DNA of 61,874 nt, filler included, from Hausera hauseri (Eukaryota): the NCBI GenBank assembly GCA_046269625.1. It is 12 parts of 12 records of this genome, joined end to end, with 100 filler letters (N's around TTAATTAATTAA, not from the genome) between each part and the next. Parts side by side here need not be neighbours in the genome. Positions count along the whole stretch, not along the records: positions 52,539 to 56,765 come from JBJURY010689216.1; 11 more parts are not named here. One strand, 5' to 3'. The notes under the pieces were generated by a model. It was not told the DNA's origin. It did no database searches and worked only from the letters and a program-made list of their open reading frames with translations. Within the stretch, counting starts at the first letter, position 1. Each line of letters begins with the position of its first letter. Shown piece by piece: positions 7,410 through 56,765 of the stretch. Made by a program: the position numbers and the translations under genes.

Positions 7410-7990
7410 AAGACATTTCAGTGTAAACATTTGTTGACAATATCTTACCACACGCAATGCAATGGTATGGTGGAACAAATGAACCGAACCATTCAAGGTA
7501 TCTTATCAATAAAGGTTGCACATGACCAGAAAGACTGGCAGTCACATCTTAAAACCACAGCCTTTGCAATTAATACAACACCAACAAAAGGTACTAACCG
7601 TTTGCCATTTGAGTTTATGTTTGGTCGACTACCGCTTTTACTATTGGACACGGAATTGTTACCATCTTCGCTGAAAACAAGTGACTACATAGATGAACAA
7701 TATTAAAGTTTGTTAACGAGACTTAAATATTTTCAACAGGAAGCCAGAATTCGAAGAGAAATATAAAGCTGGTTATAATAAACAATTTAACCAGAAAGCT
7801 CGTCCACATAAGTATAAAGTCGGCGATTATGTTATGATACATTACCCTGCCGTTAAGAAAGGAAAATCAATAAAATTAACACATACTGGACAAGGACGGT
7901 ACAAAGTGGTAGACGTCCGTCCTCAAACGCTTTTTGTGGAAAAAAAGCAGATAAATATGAAGCAGTGTCCGTACAACGCGTAACTAGAGC
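7410..7990 (+). pseudogene. pol: Ty3/Gypsy integrase C-terminal half (decayed)
   Basis: 'SYHTQCNGMVEQMNRTI...DWQSHL...FAINTT...PFEFMFGR' then 'YKVGDYVM...KLTHTGQGRYKVV' (GPY/F-like); stops and frameshifts. Confidence 0.9.
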
Positions 7991-9971: not shown

Positions 9972-10031
9972 AGCATCAGTTAGAAAACAGAACCAGTCAA
10001 AAACATCAATCAGAAACAGAACCAGTCAGAA

Positions 10032-11327: not shown

Positions 11328-11357
11328 GATGAACTAGAAGAACCGGATTGCAAAATA

Positions 11358-18430: not shown

Positions 18431-20255
18431 ATGTCATTAAGGCCAAAAGCCATTAATTATGATGAATATTGGGGTAGGCTTAGCGATGTTGCTCTTAATG
18501 TTTTAAAATGCGAGAAAATTTCAAAAGTACAATGAAATTCGAGTTTCAGCGGTGTTTGTGGTGTGTGTAACAAAAAAAGATGGAAGTGAAGTTTATGCCG
18601 AGTCGTTGTATACCGATACATTTCGTTTGATTAAACGGCACATTGAGTAAATAGAACAAGAAATAAATAGTACTGATATTAACGAATTTCTTCCTATTTA
18701 TGTACAGAAATGGCAAACGTTTCATCAGGGTTTGGAATATCTCCATGGGCTTTATAGCTACGTTAATGATCAATACGTGAAAAATCTCAGATTTACAGAA
18801 TCGGATATTTGTTATTCACAGGCAGTGATCAGTGTTAATGAGAATAACATGGAAGTTTAAGAGATGGGTCTTGAGTTATGGAAAGATACAGTCATGACAA
18901 TCGGTGAAAAACTGAAATTTTGTTTACGCAAAGAAATTCAAAATGACCAGGAGGGATGCCGAAGTTATTTGTTCGGTTCCATACCGGAAGCTGTTTGATC
19001 ACCAATTATCGTTAGAAATACGATTGTTAGCACAATGAATAAAACATGCCCCTATGAAAGCCTTTTTGAAAATGACCTCTTGTCCTGTACCATTGTATTC
19101 TAGAAACATTGGGTTTTAGACAAACCGTCGAATTTATCATGTTCCCATTATGTTATTGAGACTTTGAAATTGAGGAAATAGGATGAACAACGTTGTCGCA
19201 ATTGTTACGCAGAATCGATGAAAAACATTTGGGAGTTTTTTCGAGATATCGTTGTCGAGCAATTAGGTTTTCTCAATTTCTGTGTTAAAAATATTATCGA
19301 TAATGAGTCGAAGAATGATTTTCGGAATATGTTCACTCTGCTGTCGATTTACGACCTCTGTACGGAAATGCGCAAGACACTCTACAGTCACGTTGTTGAC
19401 GCTGTGAGAATATATATTTCATCAATATATGCAAATATGCCGATTGCTCACAATCTGTTTGTATCAGAATTGACAAATGCCAGAAATCGTTTCTATGATT
19501 TCAACAGAGATTTTCTACGAAGATACTCAATTCAGGAATGCCATCGATAAAGCATTCACCAAGGCCATAAATGATAAACAGAAGATTAATTCTCTTTGTA
19601 ATGTGACGGCGTCCATTAGTAATTCAGATTCATTTTCTGAACAATCAATGGACCAGACAGATTCTTCAGTATCGGCTGAAACACCATATTTATTGACAGC
19701 GAAGATACCTAAACCAGCGGATTTGTTAAACAGACACGTTGGTAATCTTCTGAAGAAGCAGGCAAAATCTCTTAATGATCAAGAATTCGAGAAAACTATA
19801 AACAATTTCATCATACTCTTCAAGTACATTGAAAATAAGGACGCATTTCAGAAACACTACAAGCTATCTTTGTTTAAACGGCTCATTTCTAGCCAGAATC
19901 TTGTGATGAAGAACGAGAAAAATGTCATCAATTATATAAAAAATGTGTGCGGTCTTGGATATACCGGTCCGTTGCAACGGATGTTCAATGACATTCAACT
20001 CATATCCCAGTTGAAAACGTCCTTCTCTGTTTATCTTATTCAGAATACAGATATCGTGATGCCCTGTACCAGTCAGTTTATGGTCCTGACAAATTGCTGT
20101 TGGCCTGTAAACTCCAACCCGGTGGAATTCAATTTGTTTCCGGACTTGCTCAATTGTTTTGGATTGTTCTACAAGTTCTACATCCAGAAATATCAAGGCA
20201 GGGAGTTGAAATTGTCGAATCAATTTTCTACAGTTGAATTGCAGACTAACAACAC
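18431..20255 (+). pseudogene. CUL2: Cullin-2 pseudogene (no evident introns, C-terminally truncated)
   Basis: Starts MSLRPKAINYDEYW; cullin homology 'FIILFKYIENKDAFQKHYKLSLFKRLI...CGLGYTGPLQRMFNDI...VLTNCCWP...YQGRELK'; many stops and frameshifts. Confidence 0.88.
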
Positions 20256-21050
20256 ACCATTCTGTTTGGCTGTTGAGTCCGACGGTGACCATTTCACTAT
20301 TAACACAACAAATAAATCATCAGCGTGGCAACCGCAAAAAACCAGTTTTTCCTATTTGGAGTTGTCAATGGAAGTGGAAAAGCACTTACTACCAATAGAT
20401 ATGTGAAACCTATGAATATTCAGATCTTAAGTATTCCCATCATTTTGCATGAATATAACACGGTTATCGGCGGTGAAACACGTGGCGACAAAACATTAGC
20501 ATTTACTTTACCGCTGATGAATAAAATGTGTAACGAGTCGTCTTTACCCACGAACGAAAGTACCCCAAAGCCTACTGTTATTGCGCCAACGTAGAATCTC
20601 TGCAACCAACCGAATAATTTCACAATTTGTTTCGGCCGTAGTTTGAATCTGAACAGCGTTATATTAAATAATCCGAAAGATCTTGTTCCATGTGATCTTA
20701 TAGTATCGCCTCCGTCTGTTGTATTGAAAGCCACATCATTAGGTGATATAAAATTGATGAGTTTGAAAAGTGTTGAATCGGACATTTTGGCTAAAACATT
20801 TACACAGGCATCTCGTCCAGTTAATAAGGAACCGATTGGCAGTCAGTTAATTATTTGCAACGCAACGATTCCCGAACAGGTCACCGAAGCATGTGGTAAT
20901 ATTTTTCCGATGGATACATTTTCCATTGTTAAAAGCGAAAATATGCACCATTTGATTTTGAATGTATCACATAAATTTATTCGAATATTCAAATCAAAAA
21001 AGCTAATCACACTTCTGAGTACTTTGAAGAAAACCGGTACAAACTACAAC
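20256..21050 (+). pseudogene. DDX28: DDX28-like DEAD-box helicase pseudogene fragment
   Basis: 'SDGDHFTIN', Q motif 'KPMNIQILSIPIIL', motif I remnant 'GGETRGDKTLAFTLP', 'VIAPT', 'QLIICNATIP', 'HHLILNVSHKFIRI'. Confidence 0.7.
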
Positions 21051-27805: not shown

Positions 27806-29160
27806 CTATCGGACCGATAAGATGGACTTTAACATAGGTTCGCCTAAACATGCCTTACATTCTTTCAAAATAGTTGGTTGTGTCGCGTTCTCTAGTAAGA
27901 CTCTGGTAAGTGGCATGGCTAATCGAGGTTCATTTTGATATATGACTGGCAATTCTTGGATACAACGTTTTTCTTCCACGTTTAAAGATACGTCTCGTTT
28001 TTCGCATTCGTAGGTTAACAGGACTTCTCCGGTGACTCTTCCGAAAATACCTTCCTTCATTGGAATTACGGGCGATGCTAGTTCTGGATTCGCATAGATT
28101 AAGGCTAGTTTGGTTCTCATGATTTCCATATCCAATTTACAATCGTTCGCAATCATTTTGTGATATAGTTCTGCTAATCCAATTTGTCCCTTATAGTAGA
28201 AGAAGTCATCTCTATTCTTTAAATAATCTTCTATTCTTACGTCTTGCGTTTCCAACGTAAAGGTAGTTATTGCGGCCTCTGCCACAAAAAAATGCCTCGT
28301 AGTTAGTGGCATACATTACTACGTTGCATCGAGAAAGCATTTGCTTCTTAATGAATTTCAATCCGTGGTCCTCGGATATCAATATTGTGGGTGTAGATTG
28401 TTCAGCAACGTCCTTTCTTGGTCTGGCATTATTGTCGGTTGTCTCTACATACCTTTTCCCTGTAGTTTCATTAAAATTTATTTCCTTTATTTTAATAAAG
28501 TTACAATCGTTCATAGGTGGTGGAGTCCAAATGACTATTGAGTTCCTGAAGGTACAGGCACCATCTTGGATATGGCACTTCTGGTTTTCGGTATACGTTT
28601 TCGTAATACTATGGAACATCATCTTTTGGTTCCTCATTTCTGTTTCGTAGAAATCGACCACTACTATTCCCGATTCTCTTCCTTTTCCGGTATCATATTC
28701 ACCTCCTTTACAGTATCCGGTGTGCATATCCAGTTTTCCAATAGCTACTTTATATACTCGAATTATCTTTCCTGGCTGGGCCTCCAGCTCCATTCCATCC
28801 CATCTCAATCTTCCGGTTTCTTTAGCCTGTTTACACTGTTGTCGATCTAAATCCATAGGAATTAGTGGAGTTGTCGGTTTTACTATCGATGAATGTCCGT
28901 GCATGTTTCCGCAGTGGAAAATACTTCGCGATCGTCGCAACATCACTCTATTCCATCTATTGCGATTAATTCGCGCTGCTGATACAAGAAATACTTTTTC
29001 TCAATGGTTACTAACTTATGAGGTCGGGCATCTTCGAATAATTCCAAACCCATCAAGGAATATCTTTGTCCAACCTTAAATTTATCGCAGCCGTATACCG
29101 TGATTGCACCAAGTTGTCTTATTAACATCATAAGTGTTATTAATTTAATTATCCAATGTG
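27806..29160 (-). pseudogene. env: Chuvirus/gB-like class III fusion glycoprotein, N-terminal and central ectodomain
   Basis: Signal-like 'WIIKLITLMMLIRQLGA' then 'ITVYGC..YSL', 'FHCGNMHGHSSIV', 'GYCKGGEY', 'CHIQDGAC...IVIW', 'MYATNY', 'EGIFGRVTGEVLLTYEC', 'CIQELPV', 'PLTRVL...EC...PM'; frameshifted. Confidence 0.85.
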
Positions 29161-31188
29161 ATTCGCTATCTCGCGCTAAGATAGTTGGTATAAAATTTCT
29201 TACCGCATCTTCGATTCGAGTGGTCGGCCTGTTTCCATCTTCGTCATCAAATAACTTGGAACAATTTATCTCTCTAGGTATCTTCCTAGCAGCTTTTCTG
29301 ATCAATCCAATGGTCCTATTGAATTCATTTTCCTTTAGAGGATTCGCTTTGATTGCCAAGAACAATATTACTTTCCTTAATTCTTCCTTAGTATTCTCTA
29401 CCATAATTTTCTCGATTAAAACTTCATCAGGTAAGTTGCTTTTGTTCATGTTAAACCGAAATGTTCTCATTATCCTTGCTGCGTCGTATATTACCTTTTC
29501 TTTTTCATGTAACATTTCGTTTCTTGGCTCTGAATAATTCAGTATTCTTATAATGTTTTTCAGCAGCTCGTTTAACTCTTCGCTATCGGAGTTAATTGCG
29601 GTCATGGATAGTTGCCTTAGTTCTTCTATTAGAAATGCACTTTGGTCGATATCGTCTCTTATTTTCTTTGGTCTTCCAACTGGTCGCTTCTGTTTTGAAA
29701 CAATTGTTGTTGCTTCATTCATCGTTACTAGATTTTTATTGTATTGTTCCTGATCCTCCTCACTTTGGAGGTAGTCAAAATACATGACAGGGTCTCTGAC
29801 TCCAATAATGCGTCCTACGCAGTGTTCATCCCTCGCTTTTCTCACAGCCTCATCTCTCGTCTGTTCATCGGCAATTATCGCCACAATTAGATTTTATTCT
29901 TCCGGAATAATTCCAACATATACTAGTAGCTCAAGTTCGTCCAGTATCCTACCTCGCAAGTATAACCGATAATTTACTTCATCTTTTACACCGTTTTGTC
30001 CTATCCATTGTTTTACTTCCCTAACCGATGTTATCGTTGTGCATTCAATTTCTCTCTCTTCTATCCATTCGGCTGATATCTTTACCTTAATCGTCGTTTC
30101 GGTTTTAGTTTTCAAGAAATCAGCGTATTTCCTTATTAATAGTCTGGGTACTGAGCTATAAACGTTATTTTCGTTCGATAGTTTGGTTAGTGTAGGGATC
30201 AATTGTCTCAGTTTGCTCTCCGTCATGTTGACGTTAATCTGCTCAATTAATTCTCTTTCGGCCCGCGCGGGATCTAAAAGCATCTCAATATCAAATTTTC
30301 GGTCTGTTGGAAGAATACATTTTTGAAGAAGTTGGATAGGTGTTTTTGGATTTCGGTTGTACACATCTTCCAAATAAGCATCCCATCCTGAATCGTCTGT
30401 GATGTCTGGAAGCCTATAATCCAAAAATACCGTGGACGCTCTTTGTACATTTTCGCATATCTCGTTTAATCTGAACAGTATTTCTCTCATTAAGTTTATT
30501 CGAAACTCTGCTTCGTTTCCACACGCAAGTTGTATCCTTTTTAATGTAAATCCTAGTTCATCTGTAGGGAACAACCATTTTCTTTCGTAATCTGTTCATT
30601 CAGCCGTTACATCCGTTAATCATCTTTGTACGAATTCTCTTTTATTCGTTAACTTTGCTTGTGTGATCTTATATTTAGTCTTATAAGTCTCCAATTCTTT
30701 GCCTAATTCATCTAGCTCCGTAGCTCTTTGCTTTGTGCGAATTTGCAATTCTTCTATACCTTTAACTTGAGTTGCCAACTGTCACGTCTTGTCGTCGTCT
30801 ATCTCTACCATTGTCAATAGCAGCGATATTAGTCTGTGCATTGCTTTTAGAGTTTTTGAATCTGGATCTATTTCTTCAATCAGTTTCTTTACGAATTCAG
30901 TCTCGTCTGGTGTGAGGTGACAATCTTTGGTTATTTCTATCAATTCAACGCGACAATTTTGGTCGGTATCCGATGCGCACTCAAAAGAACGATGTAGATA
31001 TTTTAGTACTTCTTCTAACGCAATCCGATAATTTGGGCAAATATCCAACGTCGATAGATCACATATAGATATTTCATCTATGGGCCTTGTTGCCAAATGT
31101 CGTGCACCTTCTAGGCGGACACCTTTTAGTCTCATCGATAAGGCGATCTTTTCCTGTTTCGCCGATAATTTCATTTCTTCGGTCATGG
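29161..31188 (-). pseudogene. Accessory polyprotein region upstream of the glycoprotein: helical domain, ubiquitin-like domain, AT-hook-like motif
   Basis: Ubl 'IKVKISAEWIEEREIECTTITSVREVKQWI...YRLYLRGRILDELELLVYVGI' (~29880-30090); 'KRPVGRPKK'; open frame into the glycoprotein signal peptide (ORF 28943-29884). Confidence 0.7.
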
Positions 31189-31288: not shown

Positions 31289-33395
31289 CAAACGGCCAAT
31301 TTCTGCCGATTCGGCAATAATGAATCCGATCAGTAGAGATTGCGCTGAAAGCCGGGAAAACGCTGCAAATATTTAATATTGAATTAAAAAGCAAAATGAA
31401 ACCTCACAATTTAACGGAGGACGTCATCTTTTGGAAATTGACGTCATTTTCGATGAATACGATTACTCTTGTTACGAAATTGCAGTGTTCCATTGGTCAA
31501 GTGGAAGGTGAATCAAGTCCTATGAAAATATTTGATCGGCATTCGTTGTTAAACGGTTGTCAAATCCTTAATTATCGTTGTAATCCCAGTATGAAATGGC
31601 TAATTTTAATCGGTATTTCGACACAGCAAAGTATGGTTGTTGCTGTTATGCACTTGTACAGCGTTGATAGGAAAGTCAGTCGCACAACCGAAGGTCATGT
31701 AGCATCGTTCGCACATCAAAATCGAAAACACTCCAAATGCATCCACGTCGTTTTGCTTCCCCGCTCGCAGAATACAAGGGGGAAAATAGCATACAATTGA
31801 AGCTGACCAGACTCCTACCGGAAATGAGCTGTTCATCAATAAGGCTGTCGATGTTACGTTCTCACCGGAAGCAGCAGCTGATTTTCCAGTAGCTATGCAT
31901 ACTACCAACAAATACAATATAGTATTTCTAATCACCAGATATGATTACATCCGCATGCACGATATGCATTTATCTAAATCGCATCAGCAGTGAAACAATA
32001 TTTGTCACATCACTGTACGAAGCCACCGCTGGAATTATCGGAGTGAACCGAAAGGGTCAGATTTTATGTTTCGGTTGAGGAAGACACGATCGTTTCTTAC
32101 ATTAAAAATACTCTTACATTAAATACTGGGCTTTACGAGTGACTACCAGAGGCAATCTGTCAGGCGCAGTAGACATTTTCGTTCACAGATTCAACAACCT
32201 TTTCAGTAGCGATCAGTATTCCGAGGCTGCAAAGTCGCAGCAAGTGCACTGAAAGGAATGTTAAGAACTGCGCAGCGATTCAGCGATTTCAGCAAGTGCC
32301 TACTCCAAGCGGCAAATCGCGTTTACTTCAATCTTTCGGAATTTTATTAGACCAAGGACAACTTCGCAAATACGAAAGTCTGGAACTCTGTGGACCAGTT
32401 ATTTTACTAGGCAAGAAACTTTTACTCGAAAAGTGATTGAAGGAAGATAAACTTAAATGCTCCGAAGAACTGGGTGACATTGTTAAACAGAGTGACCCCA
32501 CATTGGCATTATCCACTTATCTAATAGCAAATGTGCCTCAGACGGTTGTTCAGTGTTTTGCAAAAACGGAACAGTTTCAGAAGATTATTTTGTACTCAAA
32601 AAAGGTTGGATTCACACCAGATTATGTATACCTTCTGAGAAATCTGATGAGAGTAAATACTGACCAGGGTCTACAACTAATTTTTAAGGAAGCTAAATTG
32701 ACCGATCACTTACCTCTCATAATTGTCTCTTATAGATTCAATTTTGCTCACGATTTGATACTTTATCTGTACCGGAATCTACTGTAGAAGTACATCGAAA
32801 TATATTTGAAAAAATCAACCCCAAGCAACTGCCATTCGTCTTTGGTGGTGTGCTTGATGTCGATTGTTTCGATCACGTTATTATACAACTCATAATCGTT
32901 ATCAGAGGCCGATTCAGTACCGATGAACTTATTGCAGAAGTCAATAAACGGAATCGACTCCAACTGTTGTAGTCATGGTTAGAATCCGTTGAGCCGGCAA
33001 TTCACTATACACATGCCAAAATCTATTGGAATAGAAACAACAACCAGGGACGATCTCTGCAAGAAAACCAGTTTTACAACAGTCGTGTTGTGGGAAAGTA
33101 CTGTGAAAAGAGATCCCCATTTGGCATGTATTGCACACAAACGCAGTCAGTGTAATCAGGAATTGATTATAGTGTGTAACAAATACAGTTTCTTTAAAAC
33201 CGAAGCACAATACTTGGTTCGGTGTAAAGATTCTTATCCTTCATGTAAGACTTTTGGCGACAGCAATGAATACAGACGTCAGCTAATTGACCAAATCGTC
33301 CAAACAGCATTGTAAGAAACCCCGGTTCCTGAAGAATTCTCCATCGCTGTCAATGCATTTATGGAGGCCGATATGCCCAATGAATTTATTGATAA
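31289..33395 (+). pseudogene. CLTC: Clathrin heavy chain pseudogene (no evident introns, internally deleted, truncated)
   Basis: '[12 protein letters not shown]', '[17 protein letters not shown]', 'DFPVAM', '[23 protein letters not shown]', '[14 protein letters not shown]', 'KRDPHLAC', 'YRRQLIDQIVQTAL'; many frameshifts. Confidence 0.93.
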
Positions 33396-33604: not shown

Positions 33605-34449
33605 AGGTTCATTAGAAAATGGGTTTGTTGAACATTTAAAAAATCGGTGCGACCACATCATCGAAAAACTCTAATTTCCTCCCAGAAACCCTTCACACCA
33701 TATTCGACCTTTAGTTTCTCAAAAAAGTACGATGTTCCACAAAATCTGTCTCCGAACGATAACATCCTGAAAGCTGCCCAACATTATCAGTTTGGTATCG
33801 AGTGGAAAACGGCAACAACGAACGCATTGGACGCACCGCGAGTCAACAGCAATTCACGACCGACCGGCAGACGTTCTCTCATCACAAGCATTCAAACACA
33901 GGTTGGTAAAATTCTTTTCGCTGATTTCTGTCCACCAGTGCGGCCATTTTTTGCACATATGCAAATCTTCGTGGCTGACACCAAATTTCATTTAAAAAGG
34001 CCTTTAAGTTCAAGAAATCTGGATATTATCTTATCACAATTAATATTTGCCACTGTTTTTTCTGGCCGCACACTCAAACATCTTAACCCAAAAGGTAACC
34101 GCCCAATCCCCCATGCATGTCAAAATTCTCCTGGGATTACCTCACTGAAATTTTCCTTCTTGGTATTCAGCAAAAATCCACTTATACAAACAATACGCGC
34201 TCCACTCACCGACAGGGCACAGTCCTTGTACAACTCCTTGTTCCTCCTATTCCACCCTTCTGACTTCTATCTCACACATCAAACTCTACCTGTACATCCT
34301 TCCGACTCGCTTTTGCCATTTACATGTCACTAACGTCCGATCATCTATCTCATGCTCCACGTCCGCCTTCGGAGTGGATCGGACCCAAATCCATCTTTCT
34401 CGGGTGATAAATCCACAAATACACGCAATATCTATCGTGTACCAAATTG

Positions 34450-35754
34450 TCAACAAACACGAGCTTCGTTAAATCTACCTTGTGTGGATTTTTTCTTGAT
34501 AAAAACAACTCCAGCAAACCATAGATCCAATTCCACCAACAGTGACTTAAATCCAACAACATCACTGACTTCTTTGTGCGAGCCAATAGTCTTTTGATAC
34601 TTCTGCCTACCAACGTCAAGCAACAGATCAATAACATTTCCGAACTGCTCCAATCATCGACACCATATGAAACACTCTGTGAGGCCGTACTCCATATCAC
34701 CGATCCCTCGATAGATCAATTTATACGAAAATTCTTTGACGATCATGCCATAGGATACCAAAAGCCATCCTATTTTCTCCAAATGGCCATTCTGCAGCTT
34801 AGCGCTTTAGGAGTAACACCTGTGAATACGCCGTTATTTCTTGTCATCTTTGCCTACCTCAATCAGAGCCTTGATCACCGTTGTCGACAAGTCCACTGCT
34901 ATCGAAAAACTGGCCATAAGAGCTAACATATCCTTTGAGATTCTCCGTACCAATAATTGTCTCCCAATTGCGGCTGCTACCGCATGTGCTCCAACTACAG
35001 ACACAACATTATTCATTCAACAATTGCAAATGATGAAGCAACAGTTTGAAAAGTTACAGCAGTCAATTTCGGCCATTACTACCCAACTAAACAATCTCAA
35101 TGGACCTCAACGAAGTGACACCAAACTTTCAAGGGAGCGAAGCACTTCAAGACAGTCGACTCGATCCATTTCACATGGCGGACGTATGATTTGCTTCTTT
35201 CACACTCGTTATCGAAAGGATGCAAGAAAATGCTTCTTGAGCTGTCGATTCTACAGCGAGCGATACTCTGTGAACAACCCTTTTTGCATATACCGCAACA
35301 ATTATCAGTCTCAAGCCAGGTCATGTATGCCTGGTTGTAAACACTAAAAAAAAATTTCCTCCTTTTCCTGCCTCTTCTTCCTTTTCTCCAAATCCTTCAA
35401 AAAACTAATAATGCCGCCAGATTTTACAACACATTCTGGCGCAGGCAATATCGCTCAATCTTCTGGCCGTTTCAACACCGCCTCTGTAGTCTTTTTGTTG
35501 AAAGCTGCAGTGTTATACAGAGATACCTCACATATCGAATTCCTAATAGATTCAGGAGCTGCCTTTTCACTCCTTCCCTTGTCCTTCACTCCTACATCCA
35601 CTACAATTTTCTGTCCTCCGCTCTTCACTGCCCGTGGGCAACCGTTGCACGTTGCAGGAACCACGGAACTGACTTTCACATTCGCCAACTTGCCAGATAA
35701 GTTTGTCTGGAAGTTCCACGTGGCCAACATTAAATCTCCCATAATAGGCTCAGA
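34450..35754 (+). mobile_element. Ty3/Gypsy CsRn1/Kabuki-clade element: decayed gag and aspartic protease
   Basis: Gag 'PYETLCEAVL...IGYQKPSYFL', CHCC knuckle C-x2-H-x9-C-x3-C (CFFHTRYRKDARKCFLSC), protease 'FLIDSGAAFSLLP...FVWKFHVANIKSPIIG'. Confidence 0.85.
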
Positions 35755-36435: not shown

Positions 36436-39400
36436 TCACACTTGTTGATCAGCAATCATCTTCAACTTTCTCCATTTTCCGTCTTTTAAGATCTCATAAA
36501 CTCCGCGTTCGAATCGAAATTGATACCAGACCCCTTTGATTTCGATATAATTCTTTCCTCGTTTTCTCATCGTCTTCAGTTTCAAACTTCGTCTTACGAA
36601 ATATTGCTGTTTTCGAAATTTCAATTGTTTGAAGATGTTTCCCAATTTTATGAAATACAGTCCATCTCTTAGATATACTCGTCTCCATTTATTTTTGTAT
36701 TGGATGTACATTTCGCCATTGATGGTTTTCAATTTCAGTAGACTTGTTCCGTGCTTGATCAGCATTTTCTTCTGTTGAATTACCACTTTTGTCCATTGTT
36801 TATTGAATTGTATGTAATATACTCCATTGACTACTCGAAATTTATACCAGCTGCCCAGGTATCGAATAAATGGTCTGCCGTTATCGTATTTTATTTCCAA
36901 ATCTTTACCTTCAACTGTGACAATTTGCACACCATTCTTGTACTTGAAACGTACGAATTGACCACCTAAATCCACATAAACCTTGCCGCCAATGAAACGT
37001 GTGTCCATCCAAATCTGACCGACCTGTATTCGATAAACACTCTTTCTTATATCAAATCTAAACATTTTACCATCAATCTCAATGAACGTATATCTATCCT
37101 TTATAGAAAATTTCACCCAGTTCCCTTCGATAAATAGTTGATGTCGTCCATTGGTATTCTGATACTGGAACCAGTGACCGGACAGTTCTAAATGGTCATA
37201 TCCATTCTTGAATCGATATCCCAGTTCTCTACCTTCAATGACAACAAATCTGAGTCTATCCCGAATTTTAAATAGCGTCCAATTTCCGCCAAACATTATT
37301 TGGAACTTGCCATCGATTACTCTGAATTGTCTCCATACACCATCAATGTTTATATAGAGATTCTTTTTGTTGAATTGCAATGGTAGTAATTCGCCATTGA
37401 AGTCCACGTGTAACTGTTTATTTATCACTTTTAATCCAAAAGTTCTACTATTGATTTTGATGATGTAGTTGTCGTCCTTGAGAAGTAACAGATACCATTC
37501 ATCTCCCAGTTTGATATACGTATTGATTTTGTCGTATTTAATACGAAGAAACAACCCATCTTTCACGATAAACGTTTTACCGTTGTGCATCCGGAATTCT
37601 ACCCATTTCCCACCGACCAGTATGTAGTAAATGCCACTGGTGACTCGTGTCCTGTACCACTGACTGCCCAGTTTCAAAAATCTCATACCGTTTTTCAGTC
37701 GAATTCGGACTTCGTTGCCATTTCGACGAATAAATAAGTTATTCTCTCTCACGAACACAATCTCCCAGTAACCATCAATTTCCAATAAGATTTGTTCATC
37801 TTCCAGTTTTGCTGCAATCCAATTTTTGTCAGGTTTCAAAAATATCTGATTGTTCATGCCGAATCTTAGGTGGATCAAACGATTGTCCATTTTCAAAAAT
37901 AGCTCCCCTTTCACAATTTTAATGGTTCTCCATTTGTTATTAATGAATACCGATAGATTATTGTTGTCCAGGAATTTTACTTTGAACCACTGCGTTCCGA
38001 ACAAAATGAACCGTTCTCCTGCCACTGTTTTGATCTCGACATTTCGTCCATTGATGATCATTGCTGTTTGTTTGGGCAACGATATTGGAATTTGTTTTTT
38101 GTTAGATTTATAGTAATACTTATTATTTTCCTTCACTATCTTTTCCCATTGTCCATTGATTTCCAGAAATTTCCCATTATTCAGGTTGGGTTGGTTTTTC
38201 ATGATTTTCCTGTAGTATCGATTGAAATCTACATCAGTTTGTCGGTTATATAGATTGTCGAGATACTTGTCATTGCAAATTTTCCATTTGCCATCAACTC
38301 GTACCAATATCCTGTTTTCATCGAACAACAAATTGTACGATTTGGCTCCATCACGCAGTACCCAATATTTACCCATATATTTAACGGACATCCAGTTTTG
38401 TCGACCTTTCAATTCAAATGTCACCTTATTCACCACACGAAACTGCAACTGCCGTTTACCGAATTTCAAATAAAGTTGACTGTTCTTGTCGGTTACTTTG
38501 AACCATTTTCGACCGACCTTATGGTGCTGAGTTGTTTTCATAATCCTCAGCGGAATCCAATCATTTTGCGCCCTGTAATGGAACATTCCATCACGAACTT
38601 TTGTTGGAAACATGGCGCCATTTTGAACGTAAAACTGCCTGCCATTTTGGTAAACAATTGGGTAGTAGTTCAAATTTGACAAATGATGTCGAATCGGTAC
38701 CCAGATGCCATTAATGATGTAAAAGAAGTGACCATCTCTCCATTCTACCTTTCTCCAAACATTGTCGATTTTTAGTTCCATGAAACCGTCTGACAATTTC
38801 ACAGCAATCCACATTTCTTCGAAAAACACTTGGATTTCCTGTCTGACAAATTGCATTGGCATCCACTTGGCGAACAGTTTGATAAACAGCTTTGGTCCGT
38901 GGAATTTTATCAACTGTTTCTTTTTGTTTAAGACGATAAACGTTTTAGTGAAGGAAAATTCAACTGGATACCAGGTTTCGCTCAGTTTCAACTGTACGTT
39001 TCCATTTTCAAATTGGAATTGATACCACTGTCCGTCGATTTCAATTAAATACTTTCCATGATCTCGTTTAACTTTTCTCCAAACTTTACCAAATTTGTAA
39101 TACAAATTCTTTGACGACATTTTAACTTCTGTCCAACTGTCTTTGATCTTGTAGAAAATACTTTTCTTAACAACTTTTATTTCAATTTTCTCCTTACTCT
39201 CACTTACAATAAATATCTGATCACCAACGAATTTCACTGGGACAAATTCGTCAAACAGCCGTAAAGAAACTTTTCCTTTTACTTCATTTATTTCGTACCA
39301 ATTGAAACCCAACTTTAGTAAACGTCTCTCGCCTAAATATTTAAATTCCCTGAACTTGTCACCGACTTTCATGAACAATTTCTTAGATGACAACTTGATC

Positions 39401-42400
39401 GGCGTGCGAACATTGCCAAATGATGAATAGAGATGTTTACCATCATACTCTACGTCGATCCAATAATCGTCAATATTTAGAAACAGAGTATCTTCATAAA
39501 ATATTACCGGATACCAAAATCCACCGATTTTCAGCCGATTTTCGTTGGCATATTTAGAAAATTCGATTTGGACACCATTGACCATAACGTACTGAACTCG
39601 ATTTTTCTGAACAATTTTAAATGGGAAATTGTAGTGCTTCATGGCGTATGATTTTATGATAGACTGCGACAATTTCATTGAACGTTTCTTCATTGGAGAA
39701 ATACGCGGCAACCGTTGACGATATCGACGTCTTCGACGTACGTACACACCGGATGATGGAACGACACGGAATGAATCTTCAACAAAGCCTATAAGATATT
39801 TCAAAACAGGTTTCCCTCTGACAATTCGTTTCACAACTTTTCGAACCGGTATGATCTTTCGCTTAACTTTCAGATGAATTTTGTTCCTTCTNNNNNNNNN
39901 NNNNNNNNNNNNNNNNNNNNNNNNNNNNNNNNNNNNNNNNNNNNNNNNNNNNNNNNNNNNNNNNNNNNNNNNNNNNNNNNNNNNNNNNNNNCTTGAACGG
40001 AAGTTTCTGGGGATGCTTGGAATTTTTCTTGATGACATATTTTGGTAGTGTTCTTCGATGAGGAAGTGAAAGATTTTGAAGTTTCTTTTTTACAATCCGT
40101 CTGAGTGGAGTGCGAAGGGGTCTCATTCCTATGCGCCGTTTACCTGGTCGACGTGGTTTGTTTTGTATTTTTCTGTGTGTTATTTTTCTGCATCTTGCAA
40201 ATTTTTGTCTTTTGTATATTTCTGCTCCTTTCATTATGTCGTGTATTGTTAAGTATAATTTTCCTTTTTGTGTTTTGACGTATCTTTTGTTTCCTTTTCT
40301 CCGTATGTGTATCCATCTGTTGTGTAGAAAGTAGTATACCTTATTATTTCTGATGGATATTGGTATCTTTTTTTTAGTGTGCCATTCGCATATTATACCC
40401 CTGTCGAATGTTATTTGAATATACCCGTCGACTGTTTTTATACGTATTCGTTTTCCTTTACTTTCTGTGGTATCTATCCATGTTCCTGTTACTTTAACCT
40501 GTAATTTGTTTTGCCTGATTCGGATTCGTATCCAACTTCCGTCGTACCTCTGTACAAGTTGTCCATCAAGGTATTTCACATGTCGCTCTTTTCCCTTGAA
40601 TAGAATTGCTCCACTGGGTTTCATATGTCGATATTCATATTCCACGAATACTAATAACAATCCAGCGTCATTTAATTTTGCTGGTACGAATGTGTCGCCC
40701 ATCTTTATGGCAATTTTGTTATTCTTCAATCGTATACCCATCCATTTCTTGCCATGCTTTATATATAAATTGTGGTTCTTTACTCGGAATTTATATTTGG
40801 TCTGATTTATTACAATTTTCGGTACTGAAGAGTGCAGAATTATTTTGTAGTATTTCCCATTGACTTTAACCATTTTGATAGTCCCCTGCTTTCTGAAATA
40901 AAACCATCGATTTCCCAGTTTTATTTTCACCTTATTCTCTGGAGCTATCCTTTTCAATTCGTAGAATCCCCCACCGAATTTTGTTAACATTTTCCCGTTC
41001 CTGTATGTCACCCGTCTCCATGTGTTATTTCGTTTTGAATACAATTTACCATCTCTGAATCTAATCCGCAATATTCGTCCATTTCGAACAACATACGTTT
41101 TACCGTTTTCCTTCTTGATTTCAATCCAGTTTCTTCCGATTTTGTTCAACACTTTTTTCCCGTATACTTCCGTTTCCACCCATCCAAATCCCTTGATTTT
41201 GTGGAAGAGTTTTCCCTTTTCAACTTTTAATCTCAGCCAATTCTTTCTCAGAAGATAGTACTTTTTCCCACGACTGCGTTTCATTTCCAACCAGTGACCA
41301 CAGATCATTTCCTTCGTCTTTCCATTTGCCCGTTTATGAAAATTCTTATAATACTCATAGTGCCCAGGTTTCACGAATTTTTGTTTTAAATTCCTCCATT
41401 TTCCTGCCAACTTATCTTCATAAAATATTCGATTGTCCTTACCCAATTTAATTTGATGCAATTTGTCCTTCATTCGAACGTGTAACGTCGTATTTCGAAT
41501 CGTAAGTCGTAACCAAATTAATCCAACTAGGACAAATAACTCATCATCTTTCCATTCAATTCTGAACCATTTCTTGGCCACTTTGATGAAGATCTTACAA
41601 CCGACAAATCTCACTCGATGGGAATTTTTACCCAGTGCTAGGAACGTTTTGTGATTGGAAAATTTGATCGAATGCCAGACTTGATCAATTTTTATAGATG
41701 GTCTGTGCTGTTCGAATTTCATTTCAAACCATCGACTGCCAAGTTTTACGTACGTCAATCCGTTGAGTGTCGTGAGTTTTTTATAACGTCCACCCAATGT
41801 AACAAGGGTGTTGTGTTTACCAAATCTCACTCGATGGAATTTATGGTTAAATTTCGAGTAAATGTCATTGTTGTATACGGTGAATTCGACCCACTTATTA
41901 TTCTTGTTCCTGTACAAATATTTCCCACTCCTAATTCGCAATTGTAGCCAGCGCTGGCCGAATTTTACATATTCACGCTTATTTTTAATCGTAAACGGAA
42001 CCCAAATATTTCGTATTTTACAGAACATTGTTTTACGGAATACCACCATTCTTAACCATTTGTTACCCACCTTCAAATATTGATGCTTGTACTTCAGTCT
42101 TACCTCAATCCATTTCCTGCCAATTTCGTAGAACAACCGACCCCCATTGAATTTTACATTAATCCACAAACCTCCGATTCTGTAGTAGAGTTTACCGTGA
42201 GTCATTTTAATCCTTACCAATGTTTCCATCTGCGGATTGACCGGGGAGTCATTCTCACCACTTCCGGAACACTGGTGACTATCGTCATGAGGAACAAACA
42301 TAGGTGGTCCAAATGAACCTACCACCTTATAGTCTCTTTTGTGGACCGTCCACCAACTATAAAACTCGTTAAAATAAAAACAGTTTTTCGGAATGTATTG

Positions 42401-42864
42401 TGGCCACATGCTTTTGCATTTTGAATTATAAAAACAAACCACAGCGTCCCTACAATGACCTTGTTGTTTCACACGGTAGATGACCTTCATGTGTCTCGAT
42501 ATCTTGTTACATTTTATCTTACAATGAACTCGACATTGACGGACTCCGTAATTCTGTCGACACCGCTTTTTGCACACTCGGAATTTCTCACAGTTTTGTT
42601 TCTCTTTCGACTTGATTATTTTCGATGGACACTGGCCAGCTGAAATGGTTTGGATTTGATTAATACACTATGGAAAATAAATACAGTAAAATTACTTTTT
42701 ACATAATACCCATGGTACCAATAATTCCAGTCATCCATTTCTTTGAGATTTCCTTTCGGACAGTTTATAAATTCATTGTGGTCACTCTTCGTAACATAAA
42801 CATTTGTCCAAATAGTTTTTATTGAAAGGGAAACCAACAATGAAACAATCACAATTGGTTTCAT
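36436..42864 (-). CDS. Giant (~2,100 aa) probably secreted K/R- and aromatic-rich repeat protein; exon 1 42864-42710, 70-nt intron 42709-42640, exon 2 42639-36436 across a gap
   Basis: Signal-like MKPIVIVSLLVSLSIKTIWT; GT..AG intron restores frame; Cys-rich N-terminus; stop-free ORFs on both sides of the N gap; ~18-aa repeat; AATAAA ~75 nt after the stop. Confidence 0.8.
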
Positions 42865-46576: not shown

Positions 46577-47965
46577 GTCTACACTTTGAAGATGTAGTCG
46601 GCTTTTCTTCCGCCGCTTGATTTAGGTTTTTCTTTCTGGCCATGTTATTATTCCTAGGAGCTATAGCCTTTTCGTACTCTGTTTTCGGTTCTCTTAATCC
46701 ATGATAAACTTCCATTTGCTGCAACTTTTCTTCATACTCCTTTCTGGCCTTGATTACTTGTGGATTATTAGACTCACCCATATTTCTTACATACCTTTGT
46801 AAATCCAGCATCTCGATAATCATGCTTATATCATTTCGTTTTCTATATATTCCTTCCAAATTATCATTTATCGTGCTAGCTTTACTGGTCTCTGAAAATG
46901 ATACACTTCGTGGATTAGGGAATGGCCTAACTATATGTCCTTTTTTACCGTATGAATAACAAATCAGATTCCCGTCTTGGCCGATCCTTTGTCGTTCGTC
47001 TTCATTTACTGGTGATTTGGGTCTGCCTGCTATTTTGTTTTGAGTCGGTTGAGCTTGCTTATCTATTCCGTTATTCCTATTTTCGTAACTTCGATTATCT
47101 ATATATCCGCTCTTATTGCTTCGGTCATTATTTTGGTTTCTATACGAAATATAGCCTCTTTTGTTATAAGGATTGTATATGTTCCGATTATCACTAAAGT
47201 TCCTATTGTCATATTTCATGATGCGATTAGAGGCATTTTGAGCTCTATTCTCATAGTCTCTGTCCTTATTATTATAGTTAAACCTTCTATTGTTTCGGTT
47301 CCTATCCCGAGTATCGCGATCATTATTTCTGTCATATCTATCATTCTGTCTAGCGTATCTATCTAATGCCATTTCTAAATTTTGAGCCAACTGTAATGCA
47401 GTCTCGAAGTTGTCTGGTCGAGCTAAAATTAGTTGCTTAACTAAATCTCTGGATCATATACCGTTTATTAATTGAGTTGTCATCATGACATCTAAGTCTG
47501 GTGGGCTAGCTTTTTCTGCTGCTTTGCGTTCCGCGTCTGTCTTTGCCTTCACCGCATTGGCTATCCTTAACGTACTCACGTAACTATTGGCAAGCTTCTT
47601 TAGTGCAAATGCAAATTGAGTAACCGACTCACCTTTTTGTTGCGTTTTATTCTGGAAGGCCATAAGCTTTTGTTGTGGCGTCACCGTCGGTAACAGTTTA
47701 CGATTCAAGGCTCCTACTACGGAGGACCATGATTTCTTCTCGTCATGGGTAAGTTCGCTATAGGCGTCTGCAGCCTGGTTTTTAAGTATAATGACAGTCG
47801 TTTAATCCTAACGTCGGGCGCAAGACTGGCACCTTCTGCGTTCAATTTATAAGTTCTTAAAAAGTCATTTAACCCGTCCGGGTCACCGTCATATGCCGGT
47901 AAGTTCAATGAATCGAACGTAAATATATCAAGCTTCTGTGCTATAGCTGGGTTATCTGCTGCCAT
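46542..47965 (-). pseudogene. gag: Ty3/Gypsy gag (decayed)
   Basis: 'LPAYDGDPDGLNDFL', MHR-like 'QQKGESVTQFAFALKKLA', 'RPDNFETALQLA', R/N-rich linker, degenerate knuckle 'CYSYGKKGHIVRPFP'. Confidence 0.85.
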
Positions 47966-48194
47966 CTTTATTTTATTCGTTTTGTCTACCTTATGAATTC
48001 TAGGAGGCGCTTTAAGTTCTCTCGCGAAAATTAGTTCAGTGTCGGATAAACCGTGTTTGTCTATTACTTTGTCCTCAATATAGAGTTTATTCCANNNNNN
48101 NNNNNNNNNNNNNNNNNNNNNNNNNNNNNNNNNNNNNNTTAATTAATTAANNNNNNNNNNNNNNNNNNNNNNNNNNNNNNNNNNNNNNNNNNNN

Positions 48195-52438: not shown

Positions 52439-53796
52439 NNNNNNNNNNNNNNNNNNNNNNNNNNNNNNNNNNNNNNNNNNNNTTAATTAATTAANNNNNN
52501 NNNNNNNNNNNNNNNNNNNNNNNNNNNNNNNNNNNNNNATCATCATCACTGTCGTGTAGTGATCGAGACATTCCGACCGAGGGAGCATGGGAGCAGAGGA
52601 GCTTGGTTGAGACGTAAAGAAGAAAAACACGAGGGAGCAAGGGGAACAAGTCTGGACCAAGATGGCAGGGGTAAAGCTAGTCACTAGCATCATGTGCCGT
52701 GTCGTTTAGTGAACGGGTCTTTCCGAAACTTTTAAGAGGTAGAATCAATAAAAACAGGCGTCGTATAAGGTTTCTAGGGATATTAGTCACCAAGACTTTC
52801 ATCATCAGGCGGTGAGACTTTAGGGAGCTTCCATCATCATCATGTGCCGTATAGTGAACGAGGCCTTCCAACACCTCCATCTTTGACATGTGAACCTGGT
52901 GGGACGATACAGATTTCTTCTTAGGATCGGCAATAGCGGGTAGCGGATCATCATCATTAGTGCCTAAGACCTTCCGTTACCTCCATGATATGATATAGCT
53001 TAAATAACAAAATATTAAACATAAGACCGGGGAAGACATAGAGCATGTTGGTTCTTCTAACTGAACGGCAATCCTATAGCTCATCATCATTGTATATTAG
53101 TGCCCAAGACCTGAGAACCCCTCCACGGCGTTATATAACTTAAATATTAAACATTAGACCGGGAAGGCATAGGCCATATTGGTTCTTCTAACTGAGCACA
53201 AAACCTACAGTTGTGGATCATCAGCATTACTGACCAAGACCTTTCAATACAACCAGAGGTCTGTAGACCTTGGAGGCTTCGCCACGGGGAACTGCTCTTG
53301 CTGACTGGCAGACCGCTGTAACTTGCGGTCAGTTTTCATGTAACTAAAAATTAAAGATACGAGGACACCGAAATTACAACATAAAGCCATTTTTTTATTT
53401 TTTTATTTTTACACTTTTTATTTGCCTTGGTACATAGGAGAAAAACGTTCTAATTTTAGTCTTGTGCTTGGTCTTTTTTGACGGTTGATCAAAAGTATGT
53501 GCTGAACAGTGGACGAGGTTGCCGGTTCGATGTTCGGATCTGTAGTAATATTAGTACTGGTACTCGTTTCCGATGATGTAGGACTCGTTGTTTTCATTGT
53601 TCTTTTTCGATGTGCTCTCAATTGTAGGGGCTCGGTTTCGGCTTGGCTTGGTAACTGTTCATCAGACGTGTTTTCGCTTTATTTGTTCGTTACGATGTAA
53701 ATTTTTCCCATGGTCTTATTACTTCCTGGTAATATAAAATACTACGCAAAATGTAGTCCCGTTTTGGCTTACGTTATTGCATCGTGCTATGTGAAA

Positions 53797-54735
53797 TCAC
53801 TGAACCAAAAGGTACTTCCGGCTTATGTCTGAGAATTCTCCAATTGGCTTTGGATACGCCCATGCTCCTTGGAAATTATCTACCTCGCTAATCATGTAGT
53901 AAAATCCAGCAAACCAATGGGTCCCTAGCAATACCATATGAGTTAGATTGGCCACCCTGAACAAGTTTGGGTAGGCAGTACGTGACTCGGTCATGTGTAC
54001 GAATCGAAAAACTCGATAAACCTTGAAAAATCTAGGAAATCGAATAATCGGACAAATTCCCGTGGCAAACTGGACGAAATCCAAAGGCAGAAGACTCATG
54101 AAATCGATGTAAATGTCTTTTGAACGAAGATATTTTCTACAGAGCTTTTTCGAGTCGTACACCATGAGTCCTTGGTCTAGATATCCCGTTCGAAACTGAA
54201 CAACAATGTCACAAACGTAGATAAAATCAAACAGACCGTCGAACGTGAACCAGCAGGCAGGGCATCCGTCTTGGATCTCACGAAACGCTTGTCTGGCGAT
54301 GCATGTCCACAAGTTGTACAAGACAGCCAGAGTTATGACATTGAGCCAGTAGAACATGAAAATGCCGTCGTGCTGAATGACCAGCCCTTCGCTCCATTTC
54401 GCTGAGCAGTTTGATCTCTGGTCTTCGTAGTCAAAAGACGCTGTCATATTCTGAATGTCATGATTTCTGGTTGAGAACTTCTTTAGAAAGGAATCTTCTC
54501 GATCGAGTGTGTGTTTATGTTTTTTGATGCCTTGCATTTCACTGGCTGCCTTGAGTGAGTTTTGAAGGCGCTTCCAGTTTCTGCTCGTGACTTTGCCCAA
54601 TCGTTTCTGAGGACGTGATGCCTCTGTGTTGTCCTTACCGTTTGATGATGAAGCTTCCCCTGCTTCGTCTTTCCACGTTTCGTCCTTATTGTGTACGCCC
54701 TCATTAGTCAAATTTCTGTTCACAGCAGTTTTCAC
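53797..54735 (-). CDS. Cyclic nucleotide-gated channel alpha-like subunit, N-terminus to S5 (ends before the pore)
   Basis: 'FYWLNVITLAVLYNLW', 'DIVVQFRTGYLDQGLMVYDSKKL', 'LLPLDF', 'IRFPRFFKVYR', 'ESRTAYPNLFRVANLTH', 'HWFAGFYYMIS'. Confidence 0.85.
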   Translation of the reverse strand: MKTAVNRNLTNEGVHNKDETWKDEAGEASSSNGKDNTEASRPQKRLGKVTSRNWKRLQNSLKAASEMQGIKKHKHTLDREDSFLKKFSTRNHDIQNMTASFDYEDQRSNCSAKWSEGLVIQHDGIFMFYWLNVITLAVLYNLWTCIARQAFREIQDGCPACWFTFDGLFDFIYVCDIVVQFRTGYLDQGLMVYDSKKLCRKYLRSKDIYIDFMSLLPLDFVQFATGICPIIRFPRFFKVYRVFRFVHMTESRTAYPNLFRVANLTHMVLLGTHWFAGFYYMISEVDNFQGAWAYPKPIGEFSDISRKYLLVQ

Positions 54736-54749
54736 TGTGGCACTGTTTT

Positions 54750-55948
54750 CTACTGAGAGTAATTTTGTGCTCTATTGTTTATACAAAATCTCATGGCTCC
54801 ATCCTTCTTCTTGACCATTACCACTGGAGCTGTCCATGGGGAACAACTCGATCGGATTATCTTATTTTCTCTCATTTTTTTTATTATTTTTCGTGCTTCC
54901 TGTTTTTTATCGTATGCTAACCGATATGGTCTTTTCTTGATTGGCTTATCTTGTCCATCCTTTAACTTCATAGTATGTTGTATTATATTCATTGTGCCTA
55001 AATCATAATCATTTTGAGCAAATCGGTTCTTATTTTTTCCAGCAGTTCGATTAGAATCTTTTTCTCTTCCTTAGTCAGGATTTCGCATTTCTGTAACTTT
55101 TCATTCCAACTGATACTGGTGACTTCATTTCTTCCTTTATTTCCCTCCGGTTCCATCTTCAACTTTTCTGTCATTATCTTTTCTATTTCATCTACATCTG
55201 AAATAGTCGAGTAGACTTCTTCTCTTGTTATTTCTTCGATGGTCATTATCTTTCCTACTTTGGTATCCTTTCGTAATACCTTTTCTTTATTTGCCGTATT
55301 GCAAATTCGTAAGTGGACTTTTCCGCCCCTTACTCTATCTACGTGAGGAGCGACAAGGACTTCGTATTTTTCCATAACTTGTTGGAATGGTTCAAAGTGA
55401 ATTATCTCAGGTAATGATTTACTTTCTATTCTTCCAGAAAGCACTATCTCGGATCGTGGTTGGATTGTGATATCTCTTGTTAATGAAACCATTCCTTCAT
55501 TTTTATCCTTACTGAATGTTTTAGGTTGACCTGTTCTCACGTCTATGTAAACATTTTCCATTTCATTTAATATATCGCACCCAATTAAGATTTCATTAGT
55601 CAGGTTGTCTGCTATCCTTATGGTGTGCTTTAAAATTTGTTTACCAATCTTAATATCGGCATCTAGGACCATCTTAATTTCTTTTTCTGCACCGAATGCT
55701 CCAACATTTATTAACATAGATGTTGGTTTACTTATCTTTTGTTTTAATTCTTTTGACAATTGGGTCATTCCAATTATTGTTGTCGTGGATCCAGTATCTA
55801 ACAGAGCAATCAATGGATACCCATTCACCTCTATTTCTACCTCCGGTCTTATGGGTGATTGCCGTTCATTTTTATCATCGGTTTTATATGTAGATTCGTG
55901 TTTATAGGGTGTCAGATTTTCGTACAAACTTTGTTTCATCTGTTGCAC
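54750..55948 (-). pseudogene. pol: Ty3/Gypsy protease, spacer and RT N-terminus (truncated)
   Basis: 'ALLDTGSTTTII...ILIGCDIL'; RT 'QHTMKL...PIKKRPYRL...IIRSSCSPWTAPVVMVKKKDGAMRFCI'. Confidence 0.92.
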
Positions 55949-55977
55949 TTGATGTATAGGGTAAAGTCCTGTATGTA

Positions 55978-56765
55978 CTACGTATCGGGGGCTGAAGGGT
56001 TCACCAATGTTTGTTCTTTATATAACTGTCCGTGATATTCATCTACGGGATCTATATGAGGTAAATGCGTTACCAACCTTTGTCGGTATTTCTGTTTTTG
56101 AGACTTCAGTGCTAATTGTTTAATTCTGGTTATTCGGTTACGTTTTGATTTTACTTTTATCTGATCATATCTGATATTGTTTTTATCAGGTATACTGTAC
56201 GGCGAATCTCTTCCGTCCTTCTTCTGTAGAATCATCTTTTTCCATTTGGCATTGTGATTTGCTAGAAAACAGCTTGCTACTGTCTGTATTACTGCTATTA
56301 AAATTTTCCATGAGCATTCTACTGCTGCATGTATTCCGTATGCTTTGCCTAGCGCCGTAAATGCTGTTCATATTGCGCTAATAATAAAATATATAGCTAA
56401 AAAACCGGGAGCCGCTTGGCCAAAATATAAAGACTTTCCCCACATCTTTTCCATAACGTTTTGTGTTACTTTCTTTAGGTAATCTTTATTCATTATATTT
56501 TCCCATTGTGGCGATCCTTTACCGTCCCACATTACTCTCCTGGTTAACTCTGTTATAACCCCTTGCCTTTGTTGTGGGAACAACAGCATTCGTTGGTAAT
56601 CTTCTATATTTTGTTGCGTATAGATTTCTCCGTGTGATATCCCTGGTAACGGTTCGAATCTCTGGTTTCTCTGTAAATTAATTAAGCTTAATGTTTTTGG
56701 TTTAGACATTGGTTCTATTTTTGGCATTCTAATCCATTTTCTATTGTCAATCTTAAACATTGGAG
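55978..56765 (-). pseudogene. env: Chuvirus/gB-like glycoprotein C-terminus (membrane anchor and tail) directly upstream of the protease
   Basis: 'PMFKI..KW', 'GEIYTQQNIEDYQRMLLFPQQR', 'MWGKSLYFGQAAPGFLAIYFII', 'AYGIHAAVECSWKILIAVI'; one frame from 56760 to 55978 with one internal stop. Confidence 0.82.

Follow-up and report, generated by a model that had tools for sequence, protein, structure and literature searches.

The giant gypsy LTR elements Burro/GYPSM1 of planarians carry an env that lies between gag and pol and shares their frame, an arrangement that was presented as the 'first case' (Arkhipova and Yushenova 2019, PMC6431247). In the part of that article consulted, the Burro Env is described as hitting mononegavirus fusion glycoproteins, a ubiquitin-like domain is placed upstream of Env, and a dUTPase-like domain is located in the interval between protease and RT. 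Membership of the group also involves BCL2-like domains upstream of env and a size of more than 30 kb, and a third planarian was reported to hold decayed fragments broken by stops and frameshifts (PMC6431247). GAG-ENV-POL elements have further been described as 'ancient errantiviruses' with an Env of the HSV/gB type in Nematoda, Bryozoa, and Platyhelminthes (Chary and Hayashi, eLife, PMC13524379), and the same article cites Sacco et al. 2022 for non-canonical ERVs of nematodes. Its survey took only intact elements within size limits. In the portion of its Supplementary file 1 that was available, all 46 mollusc rows are classed as ENV_F, and the 10 gastropod rows belong to Gibbula, Patella, and Steromphala. 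The corresponding portion of the main text does not say whether one frame holds both Env and Pol (terms 'fused', 'frameshift', and 'single ORF'). A chuvirus-like glycoprotein is also reported to be carried by Anakin BEL/Pao and by insect gypsy elements (Dezordi et al., PMC7642597).

The order of genes considered here is therefore already in print for Burro and for the GAG-ENV-POL errantiviruses (PMC6431247 and PMC13524379, as far as the parts consulted go). What may be new is a gastropod-like host, as judged from sequence, since molluscs were previously listed only with ENV_F. Literature searches for mollusc gypsy elements with env between gag and pol, and for a metavirus glycoprotein in the same position in nematodes, found none, and a search for gastropod errantivirus envelopes returned only Troyka, which is without an envelope. 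The available part of a mollusc LTR survey (PMC6238403) does not contain env, envelope, or Burro as a whole word, and those of PMC12440569 and PMC13326412 hold nothing on an env-before-pol order.

The window, that is, the whole stretch of Hausera hauseri DNA analysed (61,874 nt, filler included), consists of short contigs strung together via N/spacer blocks. One of them, contig K (window 52539-56765), is bounded by such blocks and holds all of its element parts on the minus strand, where the order of domains can be read directly: Env C-terminus, basic tail, protease, dUTPase-like fold, RT stub, and then a host Cngl exon fragment (Table 1). Contig K is best explained, with a probability of about 0.8, as one copy, now decayed and truncated, of a Burro-like errantivirus, a multi-copy LTR retroelement of the Ty3/gypsy group with the GAG-ENV-POL layout. 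The contig lacks Gag, LTRs, RNase H, and integrase, both element ends are missing, and it ends inside env.

Several proposals of an earlier note on this DNA can be judged from this layout. The Env membrane region and tail, the protease, and RT do stand together on one strand, as PF24664, PF00077, and tblastn matches bear out. The absence of gag or an LTR between Env and protease also held: because the 170.7 codons that separate the second hydrophobic stretch and the catalytic Asp fall inside the range of 87-347 residues found in 12 continuous relatives, the linker leaves no room for either, and a repeat scan of 54750-56765 detected only chance-size repeats of at most 19 nt. RT is present as had been stated, but only its first ~87 codons remain, without a catalytic motif. 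The protease does not lead straight to RT, as had been supposed, since a predicted dUTPase-like fold that the note had missed sits between them.

Table 1. Positions in the window of the element parts, the frame breaks, the host fragment, and related pieces on other contigs
Feature	Position	Strand	Evidence or remark
Env C-terminal part, chuvirus/herpes-gB type (ectodomain end, membrane-proximal region, helix start)	56371..56763	-	PF24664
Env membrane-spanning helix, interrupted in K by stop	56347..56403	-	Kyte-Doolittle 19-mer 1.96
In-frame TGA inside membrane helix	56368..56370	-	Env frame resumes to PSAPDT and TAG at 55980-55978
Weaker second hydrophobic stretch	56260..56316	-	best 19-mer 1.69
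Basic cytosolic tail/linker (predicted), 94 aa, ends PSAPDT	55981..56262	-	PSAP at 55998-55987
First frame change, Env-tail/protease frame overlap	55981..56017	-	37 nt
LYP motif of linker, protease frame	55958..55966	-	YP in 10/12 relatives' linkers
Retroviral-type aspartic protease	55556..55849	-	PF00077 E 1.6e-8; DTG catalytic motif at 55798
Predicted dUTPase-like beta domain, protease-RT interval	55223..55519	-	AlphaFold model and VIA-align
Second frame change, linker ahead of RT	55001..55070	-	five relatives continuous here
Ty3/gypsy-type RT, N-terminal ~87 codons, truncated at 54762	54762..55022	-	tblastn
Host Cngl cyclic-nucleotide-gated channel exon fragment, not element	53809..54761	-	PF00520
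Ty3/gypsy gag start	47457..48094	-	PF03732 E 3.9e-4, below cut-off
Front part of Env (N-terminal two thirds), headed by internal signal sequence	27821..29230	-	tblastn to env-protease polyproteins
Integrase C-terminal part	7410..7971	+	tblastn to P0003, P0006, P0143, P0146; profile E 3.4e-11

The Env piece at 56763-56371 matches the Pfam family PF24664 Monjiviricetes_fusion (profile 433-564 of 653, E 1.8e-20) and is cut off by the end of contig K. Word-indexed searches with the Env piece and the protease frame returned no longer relatives; a full HMMER scan did find such relatives: queried with the Env piece, in which X stood for the stop, it returned 142 proteins at E<=0.001. Related DNA was detected neither among viral contigs nor, for P0001, in metagenomes. 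A single 14-residue match to the K Env, L001, was taken as chance.

The second frame (56017-55001, minus strand) overlaps the tail frame by 37 nt and carries the aspartic protease, the fold of which matches the M-PMV and EIAV proteases with a Z of 12.8 and an rmsd of 2.0-2.9 over 90-99 residues. The AlphaFold model has a mean pLDDT of 64, with values of 76-90 in most blocks of the dUTPase-like domain. For that domain, 17 of the best 50 VIA-align rows cover 55519-55223, and all 17 are dUTPase, dCTP deaminase, or dUTPase-derived folds with Z scores of 6.3-7.7, each of which is middling when taken alone. On the basis of the model, the domain between protease and RT is predicted to be a dUTPase-like fold. 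The same part gave no Pfam match, only weak unrelated matches in a PDB sequence search, and no Foldseek row, all rows there being proteases, while an Atlas search returned unnamed eukaryotic clusters at 0.93-0.95. The third frame (55070-54750, minus strand) carries the start of RT, which is 49-54% identical over 86-92 residues to P0003, P0006, P0015, P0143, and P0146 by tblastn. All RT alignments stop at 54762, and 54750-54761 belongs to the host gene fragment. Other copies part from contig K at ~54780 (loose ends, run X2), with RT continuing beyond.

The junction between Env and protease is genuine and family-wide. Of the 18 matches at E<=1e-10, 11 have a D[TS]G protease behind Env in an uninterrupted frame; five of the other seven do not reach past the membrane region and are uninformative, and the remaining two, P0013 and P0014, end ~40 residues after it. 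Pfam, run on 16 of the Env matches and 4 further proteins, found Env together with protease in 13 proteins of 10 clusters, with five extending through RT-RNase H and four through integrase. The order protease-RT-RNase H-integrase is present in P0003, P0006, P0143, and P0146, and the continuous frame is seen directly in natural relatives. At the other end, P0017/P0148 begin with a gag match (below cut-off) in the same frame as Env, P0007 has a zinc knuckle ahead of Env in the same frame, and P0010 shows the order gag, knuckle, signal sequence, Env, linker, and protease. Gag or a zinc knuckle in frame before Env in these proteins supports the assignment of K to a GAG-ENV-POL element. The nearest continuous relatives are only 26-33% identical to K in Env, and P0001 is 72% identical to K and 50% to the Env on the other contig of the window (27821..29230).

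The relatives differ in the number of their proteases. Two to six tandem aspartic-protease-like domains occur in the Env-RT interval of P0002, P0004, P0006, P0007, P0008, P0017, P0143, and P0146, and such domains are sometimes also found after integrase; K has one only. P0143 additionally carries ankyrin and C2H2 domains. P0003 is a 2,627-aa Env-protease-RT-RNase H-integrase polyprotein that NCBI lists among the hypothetical proteins of a Flavobacteriaceae MAG, and it is probably animal retroelement DNA that was binned into a bacterial genome.

A public run also covers the junction. In this run, X1, bins across the element have a summed depth of 208-25,761, which is not a copy number, vs 3-4 over most of the neighbouring exon. 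Many divergent contigs in the same run indicate that the element of K is multi-copy; figures for contigs rest on the matches listed, of 11,122 pieces. At least two contigs, 81-84% alike, bridge the junction of tail and protease. These data bear on the proposal that K is a one-off recombinant, a nested insertion, or a misassembly, in which an env remnant was joined to an unrelated gypsy pol. At 54762 K is indeed composite, as the host exon fragment breaks off RT there, and among the matches listed no contig spans the whole stretch. Against this, divergent copies bridge the env/protease junction with multi-copy depth across it, the two halves have their matches in one set of continuous polyproteins, where they stand in the same order, and the linker length fits. 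The bridging copies and the tblastn matches largely refute such a chance joining, which we consider highly improbable, and with 11/18 relatives fused, the junction stands as real, as had been claimed.

A tree of Env from K and 55 matches aligned over at least 130 residues places K at the base of a 16-member clade (99/93) that includes all 10 Pfam-fused clusters and lies apart from stand-alone glycoproteins. The glycoprotein could in principle be an endogenised chuvirus or mononegavirus gene (EVE) that came to lie beside a retrotransposon by chance, as PF24664 is a fusion protein family of negative-strand RNA viruses and 20 of the 55 tree rows are stand-alone glycoproteins of 600+ aa or end soon past the membrane region. 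The grouping of the K Env with env-protease polyproteins and its multi-copy occurrence along with the protease both speak against this, and the chance of it appears very slight. Some points also weigh against a GAG-ENV-POL element with one continuous frame. No intact member of the K family itself was seen and K branches at the base of its clade, P0013 and P0014 of the same clade stop soon after the membrane region, and fused forms show up more easily than split ones in protein databases.

The stop and the small frame changes that had been reported between the parts were found again, namely a TGA in the helix, a TAG after PSAPDT, and two frame changes. Homology stays in one frame on both sides of the TGA in 133/133 spanning matches (of 144), and the TGA is therefore attributed to decay of the K copy. 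At the first frame change, the offset of K is kept in 0/2 bridging contigs among the matches listed; one has the continuous-frame offset, the other a third offset, and the positions of gaps within them are not displayed. Only one bridging contig of the two thus agrees with a continuous frame, which counts against that reading. At the second frame change, again among the matches listed, one of two spanning contigs keeps the offset of K and the other fits the continuous frame. A slippery heptamer (X XXY YYZ) does not occur in 55900-56100.

Alternatively, Env and Pol of the K family would be encoded in separate frames linked by a programmed -1 frameshift, or Pol would have its own transcript. Under a frameshift, most product would be Gag-Env ending in PSAPDT and a minority would reach Pol. 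The 37-nt overlap of the two frames has the -1 sense, the Env frame stops just past PSAP, two clade members end ~40 residues after the membrane region, and K is a deep branch of its clade, all of which would suit this alternative. The lack of a heptamer, the loss of the K offset in both bridging contigs among the matches listed, the presence of PSAP, LYP, and protease in one frame in P0010, and the breakage of K at two further places argue against it, and we regard separate frames, with the product ratio that would follow from a frameshift, as unlikely. With relatives continuous, the suggestion that the breaks represent recoding was not upheld; the stop and both frame changes in K are more likely post-insertion decay than recoding.

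The position of Pol relative to the membrane depends on the hydrophobic segments behind the ectodomain. The first segment has a 19-residue Kyte-Doolittle value of 1.96 in K and 1.79-2.53 in 12 relatives, and the second reaches 1.69 in K vs 1.01-1.71 in relatives. The summed insertion energy of the second stretch is unfavourable, and a proline lies inside it in 12/12 relatives. This proline is absent from K, which together with the score of 1.69 is a point against the preferred topology. The second stretch is probably membrane-associated and does not span. With a threshold of 1.75, which was our own choice, exactly one hydrophobic segment is found between the Env start and the protease in 9/9 long relatives, and a signal-like segment just ahead of Env reaches at least 1.75 in 4/9 long relatives and in the other Env contig of the window. 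One strong helix after the ectodomain is thus directly visible by prediction on K and relatives, and this supports the earlier placement of Pol on the cytosolic side.

Working members of the family would encode one long frame of Gag, an internal signal sequence, the Env ectodomain, a membrane helix, a cytosolic linker, and pol, the last comprising protease, dUTPase-like domain, RT, RNase H, and integrase. Flavivirus and alphavirus polyproteins provide a model for signal-peptidase processing of a membrane polyprotein. By this model, Gag would remain cytosolic, the internal signal sequence would send Env into the ER lumen, and signal peptidase would separate Env from Gag. The membrane helix would then halt transfer, and Pol would be made in the cytosol and stay tethered to the Env anchor until the protease cuts. 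Pol would enter budding particles on Env and not on Gag, and the stop and two frame changes of K would represent damage after insertion. If Pol hangs on the Env anchor after separation of Gag and Env, the usual rule of Gag-Pol packaging would be reversed, and such a polyprotein would fix Gag:Env:Pol at one to one to one.

The linker contains short motifs that may be relevant to budding. ESCRT late domains of the PT/SAP type bind TSG101 and those of the YPxnL type bind ALIX. The tail after the second hydrophobic stretch, which had been put at ~90 aa, basic, and ending in PSAPDT, indeed measures 94 aa, with 21 K+R vs 9 D+E. An exact PSAP/PTAP is found in the linker of 1/12 relatives (P0010), YPx1-3L in 5/12, and plain YP in 10/12, against a mean of 2.8 in shuffled linkers, with the observed count reached in 0/10,000 shuffles. 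The motif was chosen post hoc and the relatives share ancestry, which makes the YP count a lead and not proof of a late domain; the [LIVMH]YP class was also picked after looking, and the plain YP count is fairer. Six other dipeptides also reach 7/10 linkers. P0010 has PSAP, LYP, and protease in one frame, and K splits the same order of motifs over two frames. The late-domain idea for PSAP in the Env tail, first raised in the earlier note, stays speculative: PSAP recurs in 1/12 relatives only, though YP recurs in 10/12. We tentatively propose, while considering it more probably wrong than right, that heterobranch gastropods, of a phylum so far listed only with F-type, pol-then-env elements, harbour a Burro-like GAG-ENV-POL lineage in which the linker between Env tail and protease (PSAP, LYP) would recruit ESCRT and Env, not Gag, would carry Pol. 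The continuous natural proteins and the recurring YP motif make the idea of an Env-tethered Pol testable.

The identity of the host is suggested by the Cngl exon fragment next to the element. This fragment of ~950 nt is single-copy, is cut at both ends, has a frame open over 324 codons, and is present letter for letter in run X1 at a depth of 3-4. Its best named matches are from Physella, Biomphalaria, Bulinus, Elysia, and Plakobranchus, which are heterobranch gastropods. In a Cngl tree of 34 rows, with no flatworm, bryozoan, or nematode among them, it falls in a 9-row clade with heterobranch gastropods (97/95) on a long end branch (0.66). One end adjoins the element RT at 54762; the other meets another repeat 24 codons before the apparent exon end of five relatives. 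Capture of the Cngl piece as spliced mRNA within one element was considered and set aside as unproven; the long intron-free stretch looks normal for the gene, because five relatives end 24 residues past the end of the K match, like an exon end. Searches of 53800-52539 with tblastn, Pfam, and a profile built on 7 integrase ends gave no integrase match, and among the matches listed from run X1, none bridges 54762. The piece may be a duplicated fragment, a disrupted gene, or a misjoin. If element and exon truly adjoin, the host may be a heterobranch gastropod. A mollusc host, if true, would bring the GAG-ENV-POL hosts to four phyla and would bear on whether this order is ancient or of repeated origin. 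At the far end of contig K, 52539-53260 is a high-copy repeat with internal periods of 131-150 nt and a summed depth of up to 224,000 in run X1.

Related elements are present on other contigs of the window. Behind the gag start, one contig continues with a long ORF region that includes a ubiquitin-like stretch at 44089-43760 (PF00240 E 0.004, below cut-off), and a long region of it is shared with the contig of the other Env (27821..29230). The latter Env lies downstream of the ubiquitin-like region, and a hydrophobic segment precedes its start. By sequence, the related elements on the gag and Env contigs are a different subfamily from K. A Bcl-2 match in the relative P0005 has an E of 0.00096, below cut-off; ORF 29893-28946 gave no Bcl-2 signal and nothing above 0.83 in Atlas.

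Other parts of the window were recorded alongside. Past the integrase end, window 7857-12183 (+) holds several ORFs without a Pfam match, one of which, 9201-9968 (+), has a membrane helix, and another, a 447-aa ORF at 9984-11324 (+), is similar to ORF 14704-14288 of the contig that follows in the window (E 9e-7); they may be accessory ORFs of an element of this kind. Two intron-free ORFs of 1,151 and 892 aa, at 36439-39891 (-) and 39992-42667 (-), are each open at one end, rich in K/R and aromatic residues, built with short beta-type repeats, and ~20% alike, and they gave no Pfam match above cut-off. Pieces at 31324-33312 (+), 19182-20403 (+), and 34353-35752 (+) are intron-free and frame-broken, and possible retrocopies. 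They include a cullin-like piece (PF00888), what looks by eye like the gag-protease remains of a different gypsy element, and a piece that we take, also by eye, to be clathrin heavy chain-like. The entire contig at 56866-61874 is a diverged satellite with units of ~20 nt.

Compared with known systems, K resembles Burro in its mononegavirus-type Env ahead of pol, its predicted dUTPase-like domain, and its decay with stops and frameshifts, as judged against the published descriptions of Burro. A ubiquitin-like stretch upstream of Env, as in Burro, is suggested by a weak match on the other contigs of the window. Of the other Burro features, the MATH, BIR, ankyrin, and BCL2 domains, the LTRs, and the giant size were not seen on the truncated K, and its host looks gastropod and not planarian. 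Anakin and the insect gypsy elements share with K the same glycoprotein family in an LTR retroelement. The order of K also differs from that of the pol-then-env protein P0099, in which Env follows integrase, whereas Env of K precedes the protease. With the GAG-ENV-POL errantiviruses, compared by description only, K has in common a gB/chuvirus-type env directly upstream of a Ty3/gypsy pol on the same strand and its multi-copy state; their hosts are nematodes, bryozoans, and flatworms, whereas that of K may be a gastropod.
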